Assembly: GCA_028289585.1 (NCBI GenBank)
Contig: JANQPI010000020.1
Coordinates: 96,039-160,038 of the forward strand
DNA length: 64,000 bases
Origin: Candidatus Zixiibacteriota bacterium
GTDB taxonomy: Bacteria > Zixibacteria > MSB-5A5 > GN15 > FEB-12
Direction of reading: 5' to 3'
In this document: positions 7,073 through 21,223 of the stretch, piece after piece
Numbering within the stretch: the first letter of the stretch is position 1
Layout of the letters: each line of letters begins with the position of its first letter
Notes under the pieces: model-generated
Databases searched by the model: none
What the model was told of the DNA's origin: nothing
What the model saw: only the letters and a program-made list of their open reading frames with translations
Made by a program: the position numbers and the translations under genes

Positions 7073-8067
7073 TGGTATCGAATCAACGGACGCTCACACC
7101 GGAAGTACTTGCCTCCGGTGTCCGCGCAGGCGATCGCACGCTGCTGGGCCGGGCAATTACGCTGATTGAATCGAACGCGCCGCACCATCAGGCGGATGCC
7201 CAGTCCCTGCTCAAGCTGTTGCTTCCTGATACCGGAAACTCGATCCGACTCGGCATCACCGGTGTGCCCGGGGCTGGTAAATCGACCCTCATTGAAGCGC
7301 TCGGTCAATATGTCATCGACAAGGGACACCGGGTCGCGGTGCTCGCCGTCGATCCGTCGTCATCCTTAACGCGAGGATCAATTCTCGGCGACAAAACACG
7401 CATGCAAACGCTGTCGACAAATGACAACGCGTTCATTCGACCGTCGCCGTCCGGAGGTACACTCGGTGGCGTTGCCCGTAAAACCCGCGAGTCGATGCTG
7501 CTCTTTGAGGCAGCGGGCTATGATGTGATTATTGTCGAGACAATTGGTGTCGGGCAGAGCGAGATTACCGTCCGGTCATTGGTTGATTTCTTCCTGCTCA
7601 TTCAACTCGCCGGCGCTGGGGATGAACTACAGGGAATCAAACGTGGTGTCATGGAGTTGGCCGATTGCATCGCGGTGAACAAAGCCGACGGCGACAATGA
7701 GCAGCGTGCGAAAACCGCGGCGGCCGACCTCGAACGGGCGGTGCACTACCTGCAACCGGCGACCGAGGGGTGGACAACCAAAGTGATGACTGTCTCAGCC
7801 CTGGCTGGTGTCAATATCGAGATGGCATGGTCGACGGTCGAAGAGTTCGTCGCAATTGCCAAGACCAATGGGGCGTTTGAGACGCGGCGACGGTCTCAAC
7901 AGACAGAGTGGCTGCACGCGATGATCCGCGAACGGCTGGCCGAGCGTTTCTACTCTGATCCGAGAGTCGCTGCCCACCTCAACGAGATCGAACACGATGT
8001 CGCCAATGGACAACTGCCCGTCACAGAAGCAGCCATGAAGCTGCTGGGCTACACCGAGACGGACTAA
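7072..8067 (+). CDS. meaB: methylmalonyl-CoA mutase-associated G-protein chaperone (MeaB/ArgK family)
   Basis: Walker A GVPGAGKST, switch regions, NKAD motif; GTG start overlapping mutB stop by 1 nt (translational coupling). Confidence 0.9.
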   Translation: MVSNQRTLTPEVLASGVRAGDRTLLGRAITLIESNAPHHQADAQSLLKLLLPDTGNSIRLGITGVPGAGKSTLIEALGQYVIDKGHRVAVLAVDPSSSLTRGSILGDKTRMQTLSTNDNAFIRPSPSGGTLGGVARKTRESMLLFEAAGYDVIIVETIGVGQSEITVRSLVDFFLLIQLAGAGDELQGIKRGVMELADCIAVNKADGDNEQRAKTAAADLERAVHYLQPATEGWTTKVMTVSALAGVNIEMAWSTVEEFVAIAKTNGAFETRRRSQQTEWLHAMIRERLAERFYSDPRVAAHLNEIEHDVANGQLPVTEAAMKLLGYTETD

Positions 8068-13414: not shown

Positions 13415-13552
13415 ACAGACAGAATACGCTCTGAAGTTGCAAGTATTCAAGTCCCCATCAGATCGTGCAAAAAAACCTGAAGCATCTGGTTGCGGCTACG
13501 TACACCAGAGTCAAACAGAACGCGTAATGCGGGCCAAAGACCGGAGGGCAGG

Positions 13553-14398
13553 ATGAGAACGTTGATTCGAGTAGTGCTGATCTTTATCGGGACGTTTATC
13601 GTCGTTGCCGGGTGGGGATGGTTCAATATCTGGCGCTCGCCGAAGTTTGCGTCCGATGCCCTGACCCTGACCGCCTGCCAAGAGAATCCGGCAATCCTGA
13701 GCATGGAACAGTACGGCGCCGTTGGTAGCCACGCTCGCCCGTATGTCGTGGAACGACCTGACCTGGTGCTGTTCGGCGCCGAGCATACGAAAGACCCCGA
13801 TGACCCCCAGATTGCCAGAATCGAATCGGCGTGGGCGCAACTCGACCCGACGGTAGCACTTGTCGAGGGTCGACTCGGCTTCCTGATTCCGTACGTCATG
13901 AATCCGGTACCGACATTCGGCGAGAGCGGCTATGTCGCCAAACTGGCCCGGAGCGACGGTGCGGCGATCTATTCCTGGGAGCTCCCCAAGTCGGAGTTGA
14001 TTCTTGAACTCGTTAAGGTATACCCGCCCGAGCAGGTCGCACTCAGTCAGGTTCTGAGTCCGTATTTCAGCAACTACCGGTTCGGCAAGCCGGACGATCC
14101 GGAAGCGTTCGTCGCGCAATTCCTCAACCGCGCACACTACCCCGGACTGGAGAACACGATCGGCTCAATAGATGATATCGACCAAATCTGGCAGCAGGAT
14201 TTCGCGGATGTCGCCGACTGGCGGGAAACGTCAGATCAATGGGGACTGCCTGGCTACCTAGGCGAAATCGCGGCGTCGGCCAACATGATCCGCAATCAGC
14301 ATTTGGCCTGTGTGATTGATGGGTTAGTGGCGAACGGCGAGCGAGTGTTTGTGATCGCCGGTTCCAGCCATGCCGTCTGCCTCGACCCGGCGCTGTGA
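13553..14398 (+). CDS. membrane-anchored hypothetical protein, possible TraB/GumN family
   Basis: N-terminal TM helix; LFGAEH..D near N-terminus and VIAGSSHAV near C-terminus resemble TraB/GumN signature motifs; weak. Confidence 0.4.
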   Translation: MRTLIRVVLIFIGTFIVVAGWGWFNIWRSPKFASDALTLTACQENPAILSMEQYGAVGSHARPYVVERPDLVLFGAEHTKDPDDPQIARIESAWAQLDPTVALVEGRLGFLIPYVMNPVPTFGESGYVAKLARSDGAAIYSWELPKSELILELVKVYPPEQVALSQVLSPYFSNYRFGKPDDPEAFVAQFLNRAHYPGLENTIGSIDDIDQIWQQDFADVADWRETSDQWGLPGYLGEIAASANMIRNQHLACVIDGLVANGERVFVIAGSSHAVCLDPAL

Positions 14399-14408
14399 TG
14401 CGACAACC

Positions 14409-14748
14409 CAAGTGACCTGGGTGCCCCACCTTTCAGGTGGGAATCTTTGCGGCAGCCGAAGGACGACGAGTCATCCCGGCCCCTCTGTCATCCCGGCCCC
14501 TCTGTCATCCCGGCCCCTCTGTCATCCCGGCGAAAGCCGGGATCCAGTCTTTGTCGGGTGGGGCAGGTGAGGACACCTGCCGCCCACAGGAGAAAGTGAC
14601 GAATCGCGCTGTTCCGAGATTGTCATAGTGGCGGAGACGCGGCATGGGTTGAGAGTAGCAGACAGCTTTTGCAAGTGGCAATCACATTGGGGGAGCCGAA
14701 TTTGAGAATCCCACCCTAAAGGGTGGGCCACCCCGGCCTGATGACCAC
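14409..14748. repeat. MITE-like palindromic repeat element, copy 1 (about 340 bp): terminal inverted repeats GTGCCCCACCTTTCAGGTGGGAATC / GAGAATCCCACCCTAAAGGGTGGGCCACC, three perfect 17-bp tandem units GTCATCCCGGCCCCTCT plus hairpins CCCGGCGAAAGCCGGG and GGCAGGTGAGGACACCTGCC
   Basis: Seen directly; second copy at 15507-15850. Confidence 0.7.
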
Positions 14749-14755
14749 AGAGGTG

Positions 14756-15361
14756 CTATCGCGATGAATCGGAGAGAATGGAATCTCTTAGCCAAGCTCG
14801 ATGTATGCTATCTGCAATTCGAATGCTATCCCTGATTCTCTTACGGTGCTGCTCAACTCCGAGGTATCGCACACTACCCCTGTAAAACCGAACAGAGTCT
14901 CCCTCGCATGCCCATGATACTTGAAACAGATCTCCCCCACAGTAATCAGTGGTCACAAGGAAGGAAACCTCCGCAGTGTCGTTAGCGTCTGGCGCAACCC
15001 GAATCGGTATCCTAACGTCCACGGAGCCTCGAGCCTCTACCTCAAATTCGACCAGAGAGTTCGAAGGCTGCGCCAAGTCATTACTGCCCATCGGTCCCAA
15101 CACACACGTCATTGGCCCATGGCAAACAGAGGTGAATGTGACTATTAGATCGAAGGACTGTCCAGCAAGGGGGCCGACACCGTGTTTAGATCGGAAAGCA
15201 GAGGGCCACAGAGCGTTGGCACGAGCGCTACCGCGTAACGTATCTCCACGCGTTTTGGCTTCCCAATCCTTTGTCGGCGGCTGTGAGCCGATGCCGACGA
15301 AGATAGTCACCAACACTACCAACAATCTCAAGAAGTCCGTAGCTACCGTCATAGTCCCCAT
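14756..15361 (-). CDS. hypothetical secreted/membrane protein; diverged third paralog of the N-terminal domain of the 1098-aa protease (shared EFEVE...DYCxG segment)
   Basis: 201-aa ORF in low-GC island; local similarity to ORFs 20049-21053 and 16756-20052 N-termini; preceded (on its own strand) by the 91-bp repeat. Confidence 0.4.
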   Translation of the reverse strand: MGTMTVATDFLRLLVVLVTIFVGIGSQPPTKDWEAKTRGDTLRGSARANALWPSAFRSKHGVGPLAGQSFDLIVTFTSVCHGPMTCVLGPMGSNDLAQPSNSLVEFEVEARGSVDVRIPIRVAPDANDTAEVSFLVTTDYCGGDLFQVSWACEGDSVRFYRGSVRYLGVEQHRKRIRDSIRIADSIHRAWLRDSILSDSSR

Positions 15362-15420
15362 GGATCCTGTAGATTTGATTCACGTCATCGTGCGCGTGTG
15401 TAAGAAACGACTGCACAGGG

Positions 15421-15511
15421 AATCCGTCCAATGCCGATTTCAGCTCCCCCGATTGAACCTACCATTTGTTCTTAATGTACTATATACTAGCCAATCGGGC
15501 GGCTGATCGCC
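15421..15511. repeat. 91-bp direct repeat copy A (AATCCGTCCAATGCCGATTTCAGCTCCCCCGATTGAACCTACCATTTGTTCTTAATGTACTATATACTAGCCAATCGGGCGGCTGATCGCC)
   Basis: About 95% identical to 21094-21184; AT-rich core TTAATGTACTATATACT could be a promoter for the downstream minus-strand gene. Confidence 0.75.
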
Positions 15512-15850
15512 TGGGTGCCCCACCTTTCAGGTGGGAATCTTTGCGGCAGCCGAAGGACGACGAGTCATCCCGGCATCCCTGTCATCCCGGTCCTTCTGTC
15601 ATCCCGGCGCCTCTGTCATCCCGGCGCAGGCCGGGATCCAGTCTTTGTCGCATGGGGCAGGTGAGGACACCTGCCGCCCACAGGAATACGCTAAAAAACT
15701 CTACTCCTTAACAGTCTCCTGATTGGTGAAGCTTACGGGGCAATATAACCCCTAAATCGAGGTTTTATCTGGACCAGTTTTTGGGCGAAAGGTCACCTTC
15801 GCTAGCCATCTGGTAATGGACGGGTGGCCCACCCTGGGCTTGATACTTAG
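15507..15850. repeat. MITE-like palindromic repeat element, copy 2 (degenerate 17-bp units GTCATCCCGGCATCCCT / GTCATCCCGGTCCTTCT / GTCATCCCGGCGCCTCT, same hairpins; degenerate right end near GGGTGGCCCACCC)
   Basis: Direct comparison with copy 1; right boundary approximate. Confidence 0.6.
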
Positions 15851-15883
15851 CCTGCCTCAATGCCAGAGAATAGCCCCGTTTAA

Positions 15884-16708
15884 CTACTGACAGGTGGGCA
15901 GTGGAGAAAACGTGATGAACAGATGGTCCTGCAGAGCAGTTAGATCCGACAACCCTACGATACCGTCGGGTGAACCGTCGCAGTTCGCTTCCGCCGGACA
16001 AATCAAGGGACTAAGAGAGATAAAAAGGTGATCGACCAACGCACTGAAGTCCGCTAAGGACACTATGTCGAGTGGGTCGCCATCAACATTGCCAACGTCC
16101 GCGACACAACAACTACCTTGATCTTGTACGTGTAGGGCACCTGCCCAGACCGGATACCAAAGCGTAGTCGGTGTCCCACCCGCTGCCGCATAAACAACAT
16201 TTGGGAAGAGAGCGTGGGATGTATCCATTACGAAGGTGTTTCCAGCCGTCCAATGCTCAACGGTAAAGTGGAATGTCACCAGCTCTTGAGACTGGGGAGC
16301 AGCGGTCAAACCCGGCAAACTAATTAGCTGACCGGCAAACATGCAATGCTTCAGACTGTTAGATGAATCGACGTTGTTATTGTACATCGATGTGAACAGA
16401 TAGAAATTGAATGCACTGTCAACTGCTACAGGAACAACGGAACTATCCAGTCTGACTCCATCCAGATTCCAAACAAACTGTGCAGCTGCCATCTTGAGAA
16501 ACGATGAGTCGAGCTTGTACATGAACGACACAGCGAAGCTGGAGTCACCAACACTCAGATTAAGTGGATCAGACAACCTGAGTTTCATCGAATCAGGAAC
16601 ACCCGGGTCTAGGATGTCAAAAGCCGGTGCACTCGGAGCCGACAACAACGCCGTGCAATACAAGACCAAAGCAAAGCAACGGACTCCCCGAAAAGAATTG
16701 CATTTCAT
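15884..16708 (-). CDS. secreted protein with signal peptide and C-terminal tandem dockerin-like (EF-hand-loop) module; probably co-transcribed with the upstream metalloprotease
   Basis: 274 aa; N-terminal hydrophobic signal; C-terminus ...CCVADVGNVDGDPLDIVSLADFSALVDHLFISLSPLICPAEANCDGSPDGIVGLSDLTALQDHLFITFSPLPTCQ; 47-bp gap to protease gene. Confidence 0.6.
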   Translation of the reverse strand: MKCNSFRGVRCFALVLYCTALLSAPSAPAFDILDPGVPDSMKLRLSDPLNLSVGDSSFAVSFMYKLDSSFLKMAAAQFVWNLDGVRLDSSVVPVAVDSAFNFYLFTSMYNNNVDSSNSLKHCMFAGQLISLPGLTAAPQSQELVTFHFTVEHWTAGNTFVMDTSHALFPNVVYAAAGGTPTTLWYPVWAGALHVQDQGSCCVADVGNVDGDPLDIVSLADFSALVDHLFISLSPLICPAEANCDGSPDGIVGLSDLTALQDHLFITFSPLPTCQ

Positions 16709-16755
16709 GGCATAACCTCCTCCTCTAAAATACTAATGACCAAACTCCATCGCAA

Positions 16756-19700
16756 TCACGGACAGATCTCCAATAGACTGAAGCTGATATAGAGATGATC
16801 AATTATCGCTAATACGTCAGCCTGAGAAACGCCCGGCTCACAACTCCCTCCGACAGTTCGAAGGTTAGCACTCTCAGGGCAATGAATCGCAATAAAGTCA
16901 ATAAATAGATGATTGATGTATATGCTCAAGTCAGATTGAGTGACGTCGTTGTCACCGAATCCATATATATCACCCGCAGTTCGATCTGAAAAACGGCACG
17001 GACCGGCCTTACAGGTCAAGTGGCCATTCTCGGAAGCAACGTCAAACTTGCCGAGATTTGTTGACAAGTTCCAATCCTCTAGGAACTCAGACATACTATC
17101 CGGCTGTGTGATAACTAAGAACTGAAGTATGTCGGTAAGCGAGTGTTGAAGTGTATCCTTGATACCATCCGGATTCGGAGTAAAGACCCCGGTCCAGTTG
17201 CCGCTTTCAAAAGGACTATAATTGTCATCCTCGCCTGCGTCATAGAGATCCCAAATCAAGCAGCCCGCTGAAGCCTCAAACAAGCAATGATCCGCACATC
17301 CGGATTGACCAGAGAAATCGACACCATTCTCTAGTCTGTATTGACGACCCGTCTCAAGGTCAAGAACCGCGGCAAACGTATACTCATAGTTCCAGTTGTA
17401 GCCAAGGGAACCCAAGCCTGTACCAAGGGTATCGCGTAGAGCGCCTTGGAAGAACTCGGCGAATCCCTCGGACGAAGCCTTAACCGGGTCCGAATTCGAA
17501 GAGTCGCACCAAGAATGAGAGGAGATTAGACTTGTCCGGTCGTCAAAGAAACGGTAGTGGTCGTGAAAAGCGTGGGCATACTCGTGCAAAATAGCCTCTG
17601 GGTCCCGCAAATCGTATAGGTAGTCAACTTTCCAACTACTTATGCTAATGTGACCGTCGAGGTAGCCAGTCGTGTCAAAAGAACTTGTCGACATTGTTAC
17701 CCGAGGCGGTGGATCGATTCCGACTCGTTCGGTGAGTTGTTCAGCAGCGAAGCGTAGCACATCGAGAGCATAAAACACATCGGAATTGATCGAATCCGGA
17801 GGCAGGATGAAGTCGACAGTGTAGTTCCCTCCAGGTAAGTCCATTGACAGTACTGAATCTCGAAAGTACCCGTCGGAAAAATTGACCGATGTAACGGAGC
17901 AAACAGGCGTCACCGCAACGAGACGGATATAAGGATCGATCGCACCACTCCCGATTTCTCCATCTTCATTAGTGAATTCGAAAGTGAATTTACCCAGGGA
18001 ATCAGTAACCGTCGTGGCTATTAGGTCATCAGGATTTCCAAAAATAAAATCCTCGTCCCAGGCTTCCACGCGAGCTCCAATGATAGGTCGATCACCTTCG
18101 TTGTTTGGTCGTCTTCGATAATAGGTGGCAGTCCCACGTATAACGACCTTTCGGTTGTAGAACTGGTACTCTCGAGTGGCAGTATTATTCGTCTGGTCAG
18201 GCTCGCCAAAGCCACCAAGACTGTTCAGAATTACAACGATATTGCCAAGAAAACTCGCCTGTTCAATCGGTTTAAATTCGACATCTTGGAAAAAGAGTAG
18301 CTGATTAGTTTGCGGTTGAATCGATTCAACAAAAAGATATGTCGATTGGGATACCTGATTATTGACTTCTATCGAAAATGCTCCGGATTCACCCAGCCCG
18401 TCATTCCTTACGCCGATGCAAACGCGATTCGGCTCACCCATGTACAACGTGTCATCAACCAAGCAACCGAGATCTTGAGAGACCGAAAAGACGTCCGGTA
18501 GGAAGGGATCCTGGTAGAACTCTAGGTCAAAGTTTGGCTTCCCGCGAACTTCCAAGTCGTCAATATAGACTCCTAATTTGTCATTTCCATCGTCATAGCC
18601 CGAACGGAAAGTAAAAATTAGAAAGACAGAATCCGGTAGAGTATCTATAGGCGTAGAGCCTTGACGAAACGTCTTGAGCGGAAATGAAATCGACTGCCAA
18701 CCGTTTGACGTTCCTCCGTAGGTGAGGAATCCGTTGACTAGGCTATTAGTGTTAAGGGAATCTCGGGAGTGAGCATATTGTACTACAAAAAAATTGTTTG
18801 AGAAGACCTGTTCAAAATCAAACCAGCACTGGAAAATGCAGTTTGCACTACGGAAGCCAGATAAATCAATTCCGATAGTATCGGCAAGAGTCGCGATCAT
18901 CCCTGGCGGGTAGGCTGGCGCGGGGCTATCCGCCGTGTCACTTGCACCTGCACACCAAATCGACGGTACAAAAGCACTCCCATGATAAAAGCTCGCGCCC
19001 CAGTGGGCCACGCCGTTGCCGGGATCGGAGTCGTAGCTTTGCCATCTATCCGATAAACCAAAATTGAATTCATCCTTGAAAATGATCGAGTCACTCGTGT
19101 TCACTTCTCTTCGCGGAGAAGAATCGCTAGTCGTGTCCTGCTGCTCACCAGGGGCGGTGATTCGGGAGTTCACAAATTCAGCAAACCACATCAATAGCGA
19201 ATCAATCTGAGCCGCGGCTGTTGATGTCGCTGTCTTTGAAACATACGCCCAGTAGTGATCGGGTGCGTACGGTACGAGTGAGTCGACTCGATCTCGCACA
19301 GCAGCAACCACCTCAGGTGTGAAAATAGCCATTCTCCGCCGAGCGGTCTCGGGAGTTTGATCGGAGTGTGGTGTGTTCACTGAGGGGTCGCGGATAGGCT
19401 TGAGGTCGTTTGCTAATCTGACCGAGTCAATCATCTCGCTGACTCTGCGATTGTGCTCGAGAATCTCCTCAAGCGGAATACGACCTTGCATAGTATCGGA
19501 GGCCCAGTATTGGCTCGCCATTTCACGCAATCTCGCGTTCAGCGACCATCTCTCCAGAACTTCGACAACATTCTGGCCATTATTGAACGCATCATGTGGT
19601 TTATTGCTGACTGTCACTGAATCGACATAGTCTGCAATGTAAATATGAAAGAAATTGAATAATCCGTTACAGTAGTCGACACTGACAGGAAATGCGGTGT

Positions 19701-20052
19701 AGCGCTCAGGCGGATACTGCAATTCGACCTCAAACTCAATCTGCCGCTGCCCATTGAGATCCAACTCCAACTCATTGGGAACAGGACGTGGCATTTCTTG
19801 AGGGCTAGAAACCCCTATTCTCACAGTCGGACAGTTAAGGTACTCATCCCGGGGCATCGCCGTTACACGCACCCTAACAGGCTGTCCGCGGATAACCCCG
19901 CCGACAACTTCGAGACGAGTTTCGATTGAGACATTCGGCAGCTTGCGGGGCGTAGCATCGCTTTGTGATACGAGAATTATTAGCGAGAAAAGAACGAAAA
20001 TCGTAAGTCGCTGTGGAGCAATCATCACACACCCCCAGTTTGGATGACTCAT
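16756..20052 (-). CDS. large secreted zinc metalloprotease (HExxH: LHEYAHAFH) with N-terminal paralogous domain, central beta-rich domains and C-terminal dockerin-like module
   Basis: 1098 aa; signal-like N-terminus; HEYAH motif; C-terminal ...DNDVTQSDLSIYINHLFIDF...GVSQADVLAIIDHLYISFSLLEICP; low-GC composition. Confidence 0.7.
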   Translation of the reverse strand: MSHPNWGCVMIAPQRLTIFVLFSLIILVSQSDATPRKLPNVSIETRLEVVGGVIRGQPVRVRVTAMPRDEYLNCPTVRIGVSSPQEMPRPVPNELELDLNGQRQIEFEVELQYPPERYTAFPVSVDYCNGLFNFFHIYIADYVDSVTVSNKPHDAFNNGQNVVEVLERWSLNARLREMASQYWASDTMQGRIPLEEILEHNRRVSEMIDSVRLANDLKPIRDPSVNTPHSDQTPETARRRMAIFTPEVVAAVRDRVDSLVPYAPDHYWAYVSKTATSTAAAQIDSLLMWFAEFVNSRITAPGEQQDTTSDSSPRREVNTSDSIIFKDEFNFGLSDRWQSYDSDPGNGVAHWGASFYHGSAFVPSIWCAGASDTADSPAPAYPPGMIATLADTIGIDLSGFRSANCIFQCWFDFEQVFSNNFFVVQYAHSRDSLNTNSLVNGFLTYGGTSNGWQSISFPLKTFRQGSTPIDTLPDSVFLIFTFRSGYDDGNDKLGVYIDDLEVRGKPNFDLEFYQDPFLPDVFSVSQDLGCLVDDTLYMGEPNRVCIGVRNDGLGESGAFSIEVNNQVSQSTYLFVESIQPQTNQLLFFQDVEFKPIEQASFLGNIVVILNSLGGFGEPDQTNNTATREYQFYNRKVVIRGTATYYRRRPNNEGDRPIIGARVEAWDEDFIFGNPDDLIATTVTDSLGKFTFEFTNEDGEIGSGAIDPYIRLVAVTPVCSVTSVNFSDGYFRDSVLSMDLPGGNYTVDFILPPDSINSDVFYALDVLRFAAEQLTERVGIDPPPRVTMSTSSFDTTGYLDGHISISSWKVDYLYDLRDPEAILHEYAHAFHDHYRFFDDRTSLISSHSWCDSSNSDPVKASSEGFAEFFQGALRDTLGTGLGSLGYNWNYEYTFAAVLDLETGRQYRLENGVDFSGQSGCADHCLFEASAGCLIWDLYDAGEDDNYSPFESGNWTGVFTPNPDGIKDTLQHSLTDILQFLVITQPDSMSEFLEDWNLSTNLGKFDVASENGHLTCKAGPCRFSDRTAGDIYGFGDNDVTQSDLSIYINHLFIDFIAIHCPESANLRTVGGSCEPGVSQADVLAIIDHLYISFSLLEICP

Positions 20053-20104
20053 ACTACCAATGACAGTATAGAGTATGACGTACCGCGCACGCAGTCACCA
20101 AACT
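20032..20104. repeat. 73-bp segment (5' UTR plus first 7 codons of the protease gene) near-identical to 21023-21094
   Basis: Exact match except a 1-bp indel; tandem duplication signature. Confidence 0.85.
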
Positions 20105-21053
20105 CGATTTCAGGAGTCTCCGGTTTCTTTCGATTTGATTCAACGTCTTTCTTCTGAAGATGCCGCGTCCTCACGTACTCTTCGAACCACTCCAAGAGCT
20201 CGTCGACTCGCTGTTTGGCCGATGCAGTCGCCGTCTTCGAAACATATGCCCAGTAATGATGTGGCGCATACGAAACCAATGAATCCACTCTAGATCGTAC
20301 TGCATCAACTTCCTCGGGATTTAGCAGGAACATTGCCTGTCTAACCGAACTCTGGCTGCTGTCGGACAGGCTAGTCTCCAAAGTCGTTGCGAAAATCGGG
20401 CCAAGCCCCATCAACGTTCGGATCGAGTCGATCTGTCTACGAACCTCATCGTTATGTTGGCCAATATCGTCTATCCGAAAGCTTGGACCGAGAGTATCTG
20501 GAGACAAGAAGCGGCTCTCTAACTGCTTCAGTTGCTGTTCGAGGCGCCGCCTTTCTAACGTCGCAGGAACACTCGTCCCGCTTCTAAAACCGATGTCGGG
20601 TACATCCGTGACAACTACAGAATCAACGTAGTCGACGATAAAAAACTCATAGAAATTGAGATATCGATCACAGAATTTGAAGCTGACCGAGTACGCCAAG
20701 TATAGCTCGGGGAGAAAGTTGACTTCGAACTCTACATCTATCCTCCCCGATGACTGCCGATCTACCTGCTGCTCGGTCGGACTCGGTTGGGGCATATTCC
20801 GAGCCACGTGCAAATCGACTAAGACCGTTTCGCAGGTGTCGAACTCGGGCCGAGGAATCGCGGTAACGCGTAGGCTAATTGGATGCCCTCGAACTATTTC
20901 GCCAACAACTTCTACATTGGCATCGATCGATACGTCGGGTAGAGCGCGGGACCGGGCATCGCTCTTTGAAACAGCGGTGAGGGTCAGTAAAAGAACAAAT
21001 GCCAAGACTCGGCATGAGTAGATCATCACACACCCCCAGTTTGGATGACTCAT
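20049..21053 (-). CDS. paralog of the N-terminal domain of the 1098-aa metalloprotease (stand-alone, about 334 aa), stop overlaps protease start (ATGA)
   Basis: Shares MSHPNWGCVMI start and similar following region (...LP[ND]VSI...VEVVG..RG.P...RVTA.PR... EFEV...); start chosen at the conserved MSHPNW methionine. Confidence 0.55.
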   Translation of the reverse strand: MSHPNWGCVMIYSCRVLAFVLLLTLTAVSKSDARSRALPDVSIDANVEVVGEIVRGHPISLRVTAIPRPEFDTCETVLVDLHVARNMPQPSPTEQQVDRQSSGRIDVEFEVNFLPELYLAYSVSFKFCDRYLNFYEFFIVDYVDSVVVTDVPDIGFRSGTSVPATLERRRLEQQLKQLESRFLSPDTLGPSFRIDDIGQHNDEVRRQIDSIRTLMGLGPIFATTLETSLSDSSQSSVRQAMFLLNPEEVDAVRSRVDSLVSYAPHHYWAYVSKTATASAKQRVDELLEWFEEYVRTRHLQKKDVESNRKKPETPEIEFGDCVRGTSYSILSLVV

Positions 21054-21094
21054 ACTACCAATGACAGTATAGAGTATGACGTACCGCGCACGCA
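21023..21094. repeat. second copy of the 73-bp 5' UTR/start duplication
   Basis: Direct sequence comparison. Confidence 0.85.
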
Positions 21095-21184
21095 ATCCGT
21101 CCAAAGCCGATTTCAGCTCCCTCGATTGAACCTACCATTTGCTCTTAATGTACTATATACTAATCAATCGGGCGGCTGATCGCC
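21094..21184. repeat. 91-bp direct repeat copy B; a further degenerate copy lies at about 20098-20130 inside the 3' end of the paralog ORF
   Basis: About 95% identity with 15421-15511. Confidence 0.75.
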
Positions 21185-21223
21185 CACCAACAATGCCGAC
21201 ACCGCTAGCCACAAGGGGTTACG

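Follow-up and report, generated by a model that had tools for sequence, protein, structure and literature searches.

Small nucleases of the Ssn type, together with the oriented DNA hairpins on which they act, were described in 2025 and are the closest known counterpart of the locus reported here. The study that introduced them (PMC11893778; Nat Commun 2025;16:2388) defined the Neisseria Transformation Sequence (NTS), CGTCATTCCCGCGMAVGCGGGAATCYRG, which contains dRS3, as well as a degenerate Ssn-related motif (SRM), HGTCWYN(0-2)YYVSBRHN(0-5)WNVSBRGN(0-2)RNCYNB. SsnA, a 94-aa GIY-YIG protein of family cd10448, binds the hairpin exclusively as single-stranded DNA (ssDNA), does not bind its RNA form, and cuts a few nucleotides upstream; the Ssn nucleases of four tested species bind the hairpin as ssDNA and nick it a few nucleotides upstream of a conserved GTC. 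Binding depended most on the C directly past the palindrome, and cleavage most on the three bases that precede the palindrome; the loop was dispensable, and the two halves could come on separate strands (PMC11893778). Here we place an SRM-type hairpin in a Zixibacteria genome, at the centre of a 176-nt composite repeat, designated E, of which two copies (E1 and E2) lie in the stretch of 64,000 nt that was analysed as a whole and is called the window below. Its methylmalonyl-CoA mutase gene puts the window in Zixibacteria, the best named matches being 77-78% identical and one contig with an ortholog being labelled Zixibacteria.

Two families of mosaic repeats provide a further point of reference: in neisserial intergenic mosaic elements (NIMEs) RS units are bracketed by pairs of dRS3, and in the bacterial interspersed mosaic elements (BIMEs) of E. 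coli pairs of repetitive extragenic palindromes (REPs) are arranged around sites for IHF or gyrase. We regard E, with moderate confidence, as a NIME/BIME-like intergenic mosaic built on an SRM and locally duplicated around a small gene for a putatively secreted protein. Its separable hairpin modules are X', a series of 5' half-sites leading into an SRM, and Y; they are listed here with the related palindromes outside the repeat.

14416 to 14591, plus strand: E1, copy 1 of the 176-nt composite repeat, delimited as repeat family D1 and by alignment, between the convergent 302-aa (plus) and 201-aa (minus) genes
14425 to 14441, plus strand: hairpin X', CCCACCT-TTC-AGGTGGG, the left terminal inverted repeat of an earlier note on this DNA; at 15519 to 15535 in E2
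14470 to 14520, plus strand: three orphan 5' half-sites of E1, all identical, GTCATCCCGGC plus a 6-nt CT-rich spacer (CCCTCT), period 17
14520 to 14547, plus strand: complete SRM/NTS-like hairpin of E1, TGTCATCCCGGC-GAAA-GCCGGGATCCAG, which fits the published degenerate motif
14562 to 14581, plus strand: hairpin Y, GGCAGGTG-AGGA-CACCTGCC; at 15656 to 15675 in E2
14710 to 14734, plus strand: hairpin X, CCCACCC-TAAA-GGGTGGG then CCACCCC, outside the core and 22 nt past the stop of the 201-aa open reading frame (ORF), the right terminal inverted repeat of the earlier note
15510 to 15685, plus strand: E2, copy 2 of the 176-nt composite repeat, flanked by the 274-aa gene and by the region ahead of the 201-aa gene
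15564 to 15614, plus strand: three orphan 5' half-sites of E2, with spacers ATCCCT, CCTTCT and GCCTCT and a C-to-T change in one half-site
15614 to 15641, plus strand: complete SRM/NTS-like hairpin of E2, TGTCATCCCGGC-GCAG-GCCGGGATCCAG
15822 to 15834, no strand assigned: palindrome GGGTGGCCCACCC, a partial X module that may be inverted, 137 nt past E2 and ~50 nt past the stop of the 274-aa ORF

E is a real, duplicated composite. The two copies are 94% identical and lie in direct orientation 1.1 kb apart, a spacing that the earlier note had reported; both copies and their boundaries are confirmed by an independent assembly, the Logan short-read contigs of run SRR20820731. Three of these contigs break off precisely 30 nt within the outer boundaries of E (L002 and L133 inside E1, L001 and L133 inside E2), and a contig of 978 nt runs from E2 through the small gene to E1; the duplication and its boundaries are therefore real, and no artefact of assembly. 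The extent of 340 bp (14409-14748) previously assigned to the first copy was too large, since 14592-14748 cannot be aligned with copy 2 except for a palindromic module of 13-23 nt, at a similar distance of ~130 nt from the core in both (GGGTGGGCCACCC at 14721-14733 and GGGTGGCCCACCC at 15822-15834), for which local alignment scores 24-28, against a mean of 15.7 and a maximum of 22 in shuffled sequences. In copy 2, which the earlier note described as having the architecture of copy 1 with diverged units, the spacers have diverged and the right arm is missing.

No third copy of E, full or partial, was found in the window. The 22-mer at its left end has no exact match in GTDB species representatives, and the three JGI metagenome matches and one IMG/VR match to it represent one unrelated, AT-rich sequence of 135 kb that has only the hairpin in common with E (L003-L005 and L134, for example L004:10733-10754, with nothing else of E there). 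In this IMG/VR contig, of ~33% GC, the exact left hairpin of 21-22 nt (CCCCACCTTTCAGGTGGGAATC) occurs once, apparently inside an ORF, where it could be present by chance or through the insertion of a GC-rich hairpin into coding sequence. The whole 176 nt has no full-length match in plasmids or phages, hairpin Y has none in IMG/VR, and a search for the tandem-unit pattern returned no matches; outside the source genome, matches cover just the 27-33 nt of the hairpin, and the flanks of E are unmatched. A protein search with a concatenation of the translations of E in its three forward frames gave nothing at E<=0.001, which is uninformative, as gene callers call no ORFs on E even in the source genome. 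With phmmer, the translation found 13 weak matches among 1.84 billion representatives, of which the four inspected were generic translated SRM arrays, and peptide strings of the translation were not found in the literature. The database "proteins" P0246, P0250, P0251 and P0253 (220-713 aa), with motifs such as VIPAKAGIQ, SFRRKPESR and RRSGESRNP, are translated tandem DNA repeats that contain SRMs; they are annotation artefacts to which this repeat family gives rise.

By its sequence, its orientation marks and its covariation, the centre of E is assigned to the SRM/NTS hairpin family. Exactly two matches to the degenerate motif occur in the 64 kb, at 14520-14547 and 15614-15641, both on the plus strand and both intergenic. 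Each copy carries tGTC-ATCCCGGC...GCCGGGAT-C, that is, the GTC upstream of the palindrome as well as the trailing C, and in the full hairpin of E1 the 3' arm GCCGGGAT is followed by CCAG. The exact hairpin with any loop, GTCATCCCGGC-N4-GCCGGGATCCAG, is present on more than 120 contigs (a lower bound) of GTDB species-representative genomes from many phyla, mostly Pseudomonadota but also Bifidobacterium and Microgenomates and Desulfobacterales metagenome-assembled genomes (MAGs), and on 60 IMG/VR contigs; elsewhere it often forms an inverted doublet, 15-30 nt apart. Stem covariation was assessed in seven hairpins: the two of the window, A and B of L127 (an ENA contig of a distant Zixibacteria relative), and those of L197, L195 and Niveispirillum. 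Compensatory double changes are seen at two of the eight stem pairs, and 92.9% of cells are paired, compared with at most 54% when the partner is slid.

Hairpin X' is separated by a 28-nt linker from the 17-nt units, each of which comprises the 5' arm of the central hairpin, GTCAT and the upstream flank, such that E contains four 5' arms and one 3' arm. The three perfect units GTCATCCCGGCCCCTCT (14470-14520), the hairpin CCCGGCGAAAGCCGGG (14526-14541) that ends them and the further hairpin GGCAGGTGAGGACACCTGCC (the letters at 14562-14581) are all present as quoted in the earlier note, and Tandem Repeats Finder describes the array as period 17, 3.6 copies and 100% matches. The word GTCATCCCGGC is enriched, with 13 matches at one mismatch or fewer where 2.4 are expected, a number reached in none of 100 shuffles. 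Of the ten differences between E1 and E2, seven fall in the 22 spacer and loop positions (18 spacer and 4 loop; hypergeometric p=1.7e-5) and one in the 44 half-site positions, whereas the 3' arm and the left 54 nt are free of differences; GTCAT is kept in every orphan half. The variable positions are those that the SsnA study found dispensable, and the invariant ones include those it found important (PMC11893778).

Three hairpins, the 8-bp SRM stem included, dominate the minimum-free-energy fold calculated with DNA parameters, and the short tail of E can pair with its first bases. Taken as ssDNA, the four 5' arms pair with the single 3' arm at -5.9, -6.3, -7.4 and -9.8 kcal/mol, with loops of 55, 38, 21 and 4 nt, respectively. 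Folding had been suggested as a check on the element, and E does fold better than shuffled sequence, if modestly and on both strands (z -2.5 to -4.1). The outer palindromes, previously read as imperfect terminal inverted repeats of ~25 bp, are likewise present, with GCCCCACCTTTCAGGTGGGAATC at 14423-14445 and again at 15517-15539, and its imperfect inverse GAGAATCCCACCCTAAAGGGTGGGC at 14704-14728 (~18/23 positions match). They are not the termini of an element, however; each is a self-complementary, stand-alone hairpin, and X' is a variant of X with a compensatory change from C-G to T-A at the loop-proximal pair.

Comparable arrays are found in relatives, most convincingly in L127. Directly after the L127 ortholog of the 281-aa gene of the window there are two tandem units of ~194 nt, each consisting of orphan GTCATTCCTGC halves with CT-rich spacers at a period of 20 and then one full hairpin, GTCATTCCTGC-GGAG-GCAGGAACCCAG, the 3' arm of which, GCAGGAAC, is followed by CCAG. 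The orphans match the stem variant of their own genome, ATCCCGGC in the window and ATTCCTGC in L127, and the L127 stem is distinguished from that of the window by compensatory changes. An X hairpin, AAACCCACCC-TGGGAA-GGGTGGGCCACC, stands ~60 nt past the full hairpin, and the hairpin at 14710-14734 of the window is a module homologous to these AAACCCACCC-N6-GGGTGGGCCACC hairpins. Of the four X hairpins in L127, two are alone in intergenic positions (L127:370 and 3132) and two are beside SRM arrays (L127:8105 and 8289); the SRM, too, is found alone in more than 120 genomes. The modules are therefore separable, and E is a mosaic. As a further observation, the L127 X hairpin has a T-rich tail on the opposite strand, one such hairpin scores as terminator-like, and the module may act as a terminator.

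The number of orphans is not constant. The contigs L128 and L129 have four (7962-8058) and L127 has three (7962-8037), with an identical flanking protein and from other metagenome samples; since unit number differs between samples, the array behaves as a variable-number tandem repeat. Several contigs of the L127 species end inside arrays. The three identical units of E1 would fit a recent contraction followed by re-expansion.

The arrangement also shows a marked polarity. In unrelated genomes, orphan 5' halves lie within 38 nt upstream of six of 140 exact hairpins, and orphan 3' halves accompany none of the 140; no such arrangement was seen at any of 76 hairpins on viral contigs, and a Niveispirillum plasmid has the same arrangement of orphan halves as E. 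Altogether, half-site arrays recur in two Zixibacteria lineages (with different stems), in Alphaproteobacteria, in Gammaproteobacteria and in one Microgenomates MAG, and the period differs among homologous elements (17, 18-19, 20-21 and 22-24 nt). The 5.4-Mb relative L195 has, on its minus strand at L195:20590-20830, a 28-nt tandem array of about eight weak SRM-like units (GTCATCCCCGGTGAAAGCAGGGATCCAT) and then one strong hairpin; L197 has a canonical NTS-like hairpin, TGTCATTCCCGCGCAGGCGGGAATCCAG. Two observations stand beside these. An IS110-family transposase gene lies directly downstream of the methylmalonyl-CoA mutase gene of L195 (L195:13052-14113), and in Chthonobacter rhizosphaerae (L074:5819-6715) four tandem G-rich composites of 208-267 nt contain one exact SRM hairpin each.

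As in the four tested species, an Ssn-type nuclease of the host would recognise the central hairpin of E as ssDNA and nick it a few nucleotides upstream of GTC. The same-strand arrangement of SRM, gene and SRM could then affect the recombination or the uptake of the bracketed gene. The orphan halves may each pair with the single 3' arm, thereby offering alternative registers of cleavage, or they may be by-products of cleavage and repair. A bolder proposal, in which the polar run of orphan 5' half-sites would signal, functionally or mechanistically, that Ssn is active in vivo, we put forward as tentative and, on balance, improbable. In one version the run would be the trace left by cycles of cutting upstream of the hairpin and subsequent repair synthesis; in another it would provide alternative pairing registers, the one 3' arm picking among the 5' arms, in the manner of the published split-site cleavage, and so setting the site at which ssDNA is cut. 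Such a run would be more than the outcome of slippage, because arrays recur across lineages with different stems, their unit number varies, and no mirror-image 3' arrays accompany them.

Several points weigh against building the interpretation of E on Ssn and SRMs. Chance matches to the degenerate motif are expected at 0.55 (mononucleotide shuffles), and the density of SRMs, two in 64 kb, is low. A gene for Ssn (GIY-YIG, cd10448) was not found in the 64-kb window: Pfam gave no GIY-YIG match among the small window ORFs, the gene tables of ~140 kb of relatives' loci list no member of the family, and tblastn with YhbQ/YazA-type GIY-YIG queries, a weak test, found no match in the window or in the loci compared with it. 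Judged strictly, the L127 hairpin falls outside the published degenerate motif. Four other relatives, with 68-130 nt after the orthologous gene, have no element there, and the position shared by E and L127 may reflect independent acquisition rather than conservation. The role suggested for the orphan half-sites is extrapolated from split-site results obtained in vitro with Neisseria, not from this organism, and hairpins that follow genes can also act simply as terminators or as stabilisers of mRNA.

The genes around E bear on how the two copies arose.

13490 to 14398, plus strand: TraB/GumN-like gene of 281/302 aa; its L127 ortholog is 61% identical and is followed by a similar element
14756 to 15361, minus strand: ORF of 201 aa (198 aa as called) that lies between E2 and E1; on an independent Logan contig, too, the called gene has 198 aa
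15410 to 15511, minus strand: 102 nt lying upstream of the 201-aa gene, which share 91% identity with the segment ahead of the 351-aa gene (21083-21184)

E1 lies between the stops of the 281/302-aa gene (plus) and the 201-aa ORF (minus), and E2 between the stop of the 274-aa ORF (minus) and the upstream region of the 201-aa ORF. The 201-aa ORF has no Pfam match; its product is putatively secreted, with a hydrophobic N-terminus, and is weakly paralogous to the N-terminal domain of the neighbouring 1098-aa and 351-aa proteins. The similarity between the 102-nt promoter-like segments ends precisely at the left boundary of E2, and an end of E therefore coincides with a rearrangement breakpoint. 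This breakpoint and the small number of copies, two at a distance of 1.1 kb, make a local recombination or duplication that joined an end of E to a copy of the promoter region the most probable origin, rather than transposition.

On the minus strand at 16756-21104, the 351-aa ORF and the N-terminal third of the 1098-aa ORF are tandem paralogs; around the two start codons, 76 nt (20021-20096 and 21022-21097) share 99% identity, and further, weaker repeats have the same offset of 1001 nt, which suggests recent duplication or gene conversion. The block from 14400 to 21200, which encodes putative secreted proteins with dockerin-like C-terminal repeats, is of lower GC (~44-53%) than the flanking genes of tyrosine catabolism (57-64%; HPPD, homogentisate dioxygenase and FAA hydrolase), and may be an inserted island with E1 as its left bound. 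No tRNA or tmRNA genes were found.

The alternative that survives best, which we nevertheless consider unlikely, is passive local duplication: the hairpins would be terminators or REP-like stabilisers of mRNA, the 17-nt array would be neutral slippage, and no dedicated nuclease would be involved. There are indeed just two neighbouring copies, with no other in the window, GTDB representatives, JGI metagenomes, plasmids or phages; both stand past an X-type palindrome, 165-199 nt downstream of a gene on the minus strand; one L127 X hairpin is terminator-like; and variation in unit number resembles slippage. Against this, the central hairpin is an exact, oriented match to a cross-phylum motif family, the substitutions avoid the GTCAT, stem and trailing-C positions, and neutral slippage alone would not predict a polarity of six versus none or the recurrence of the arrays in unrelated genomes; moreover, a promoter and terminator scan of 14300-16000 found nothing. 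For the X hairpins taken by themselves, a plain terminator or REP-like stabiliser reading is possible.

A classical miniature inverted-repeat transposable element (MITE), mobilised in trans by a transposase encoded elsewhere, is very improbable, although the earlier note called the element MITE-like. The repeat is indeed non-coding, hairpin-rich and devoid of a transposase: Pfam detected no transposase family in the small gene bracketed by the copies, in five flanking ORFs or in ten small ORFs of the window. The unit also ends with short imperfect complementarity (CCTGGG... pairs with ...CCCACAGG in folds), and the 6-nt word AAGTGA occurs on both sides of copy 1. The proposed terminal repeats, however, are not at the repeat boundaries, the right one being 113 nt outside the unit and absent from copy 2, and no consistent target-site duplication accompanies the copies, there being none at copy 2. 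We judged AAGTGA (14410-14415 and 14594-14599) to be a chance match, adjoining the copy on the left, offset by 2 nt on the right and with no counterpart at E2. Nor are there dispersed copies in the window, GTDB representatives, JGI metagenomes, IMG/VR, plasmids or phages. The earlier note had itself taken a lack of additional copies and of target-site duplications as grounds for preferring a local duplication to a mobile family, and the outcome favours the former, a local duplication of the composite. Its modules, on the other hand, are members of widely distributed families of repeats, the SRM hairpin being found across the GTDB contigs counted above and the CCCACCC/GGGTGGG hairpin in multiple copies in L127.

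We give still less credence to a hairpin-forming REP doublet (REPIN), or REP, mobilised by a REP-associated tyrosine transposase (RAYT; IS200/IS605-like), or to a target of an IS110-type recombinase. The inverted doublets formed by the hairpin elsewhere, the analogy drawn in the Ssn paper itself (PMC11893778) and the IS110 transposase of L195 lend it some appeal. The hairpins of the window are single and in one orientation, however, with no inverted doublet and no conserved GTAG head. RAYT-associated REPs are usually lineage-specific, whereas the near-identical motif seen here is spread over many phyla.

Two readings have a very small probability. In the first, E would be a structured non-coding RNA or a cis-regulatory RNA in a 3' or 5' untranslated region. 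Its folds are somewhat more stable than shuffled sequence and its stem pairs covary, but palindromic DNA folds equally on both strands, and across genomes it is the hairpin modules that are conserved and not an overall fold. No Rfam match was obtained at gathering thresholds for the whole window, nor anything credible up to an E-value of 10 for 14300-15950; the scan of 14300-16000 gave no promoter or terminator; E1 lies between convergent genes; and SsnA does not bind RNA. Of the options in the earlier note, an RNA gene is thus unsupported by the Rfam and promoter/terminator scans, and an array recognised by a protein comes near the reading we prefer. The particular form in which that protein is a regulator or replication protein binding double-stranded sites (iterons or operators) is the second of these readings: there are four evenly spaced, identical 11-mers, and E2 is just upstream of a conserved promoter-like segment, yet E1 stands between two convergent gene ends with no promoter to regulate, the period is not the same in all homologous elements, the word that recurs is one half of a hairpin and is followed by the other, and no rep gene or origin features are nearby. 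Integron attC sites or the att sites of integrative elements were dropped, as no integrase lies between or beside the copies, the attC core sites not having been formally scanned.

If E is indeed an intergenic mosaic built on an SRM, the locus would bear on Ssn biology in several ways. Its layout of repeat, gene and repeat matches one linked to variable surface genes in Neisseria, and the half that is arrayed is the half with the cleavage determinant. Were the arrays linked to nuclease action, they would provide a sequence-level handle on Ssn in cells, and could represent natural examples of the split-site cleavage that has been proposed for biotechnology. On a practical level, recognition of the SRM motif would remove fake long proteins (those with VIPAKAGIQ-type repeats) from public databases.

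Compared with known systems, E is closest to SRM, NTS and dRS3 (PMC11893778) in having an oriented hairpin with a 5' GTCAT, an 8-bp stem, a 4-nt loop and a trailing CCAG. Its hairpin resembles CGTCATTCCCGCGMAVGCGGGAATCYRG, fits the degenerate motif, is intergenic and varies in the loop and the upstream flank, and, as in NTS-gene-NTS arrangements, the copies flank a putative secreted or surface-protein gene on both sides. It differs from the NTS in its stem (ATCCCGGC versus ATTCCCGC), and from Ssn/SRM systems in its host, a Zixibacteria MAG rather than Pseudomonadota, in its density of two per 64 kb, and in the absence of an ssn gene from the window. Unlike published SRMs, the hairpin of E is preceded by three tandem orphan 5' halves, and such tandem arrays are not described in PMC11893778, where the word "tandem" is absent from the text. 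Correia elements and other MITEs are, like E, small, non-coding and hairpin-forming and encode no transposase, but E is without terminal inverted repeats at its boundaries, a consistent target-site duplication and dispersed copies. REPINs are likewise short extragenic palindromes acted on as ssDNA, and the SRM hairpin is often an inverted doublet elsewhere; the hairpins of E, by contrast, stand singly, share one orientation and lack a GTAG head, no RAYT was found in the window, and the motif is shared by many phyla and not confined to one species. NIMEs and BIMEs are, as is E, intergenic composites of short palindromic modules that each occur separately as well; they may recur around genes for variable surface proteins and are potential substrates for homologous recombination. 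E departs from both in the two copies seen in the 64 kb and in combining X-type hairpins with one SRM. The hairpin family and the concept of the mosaic repeat were known already; what is new is the host lineage, this particular composite and, above all, the polar, strain-variable arrays of 5' half-sites.

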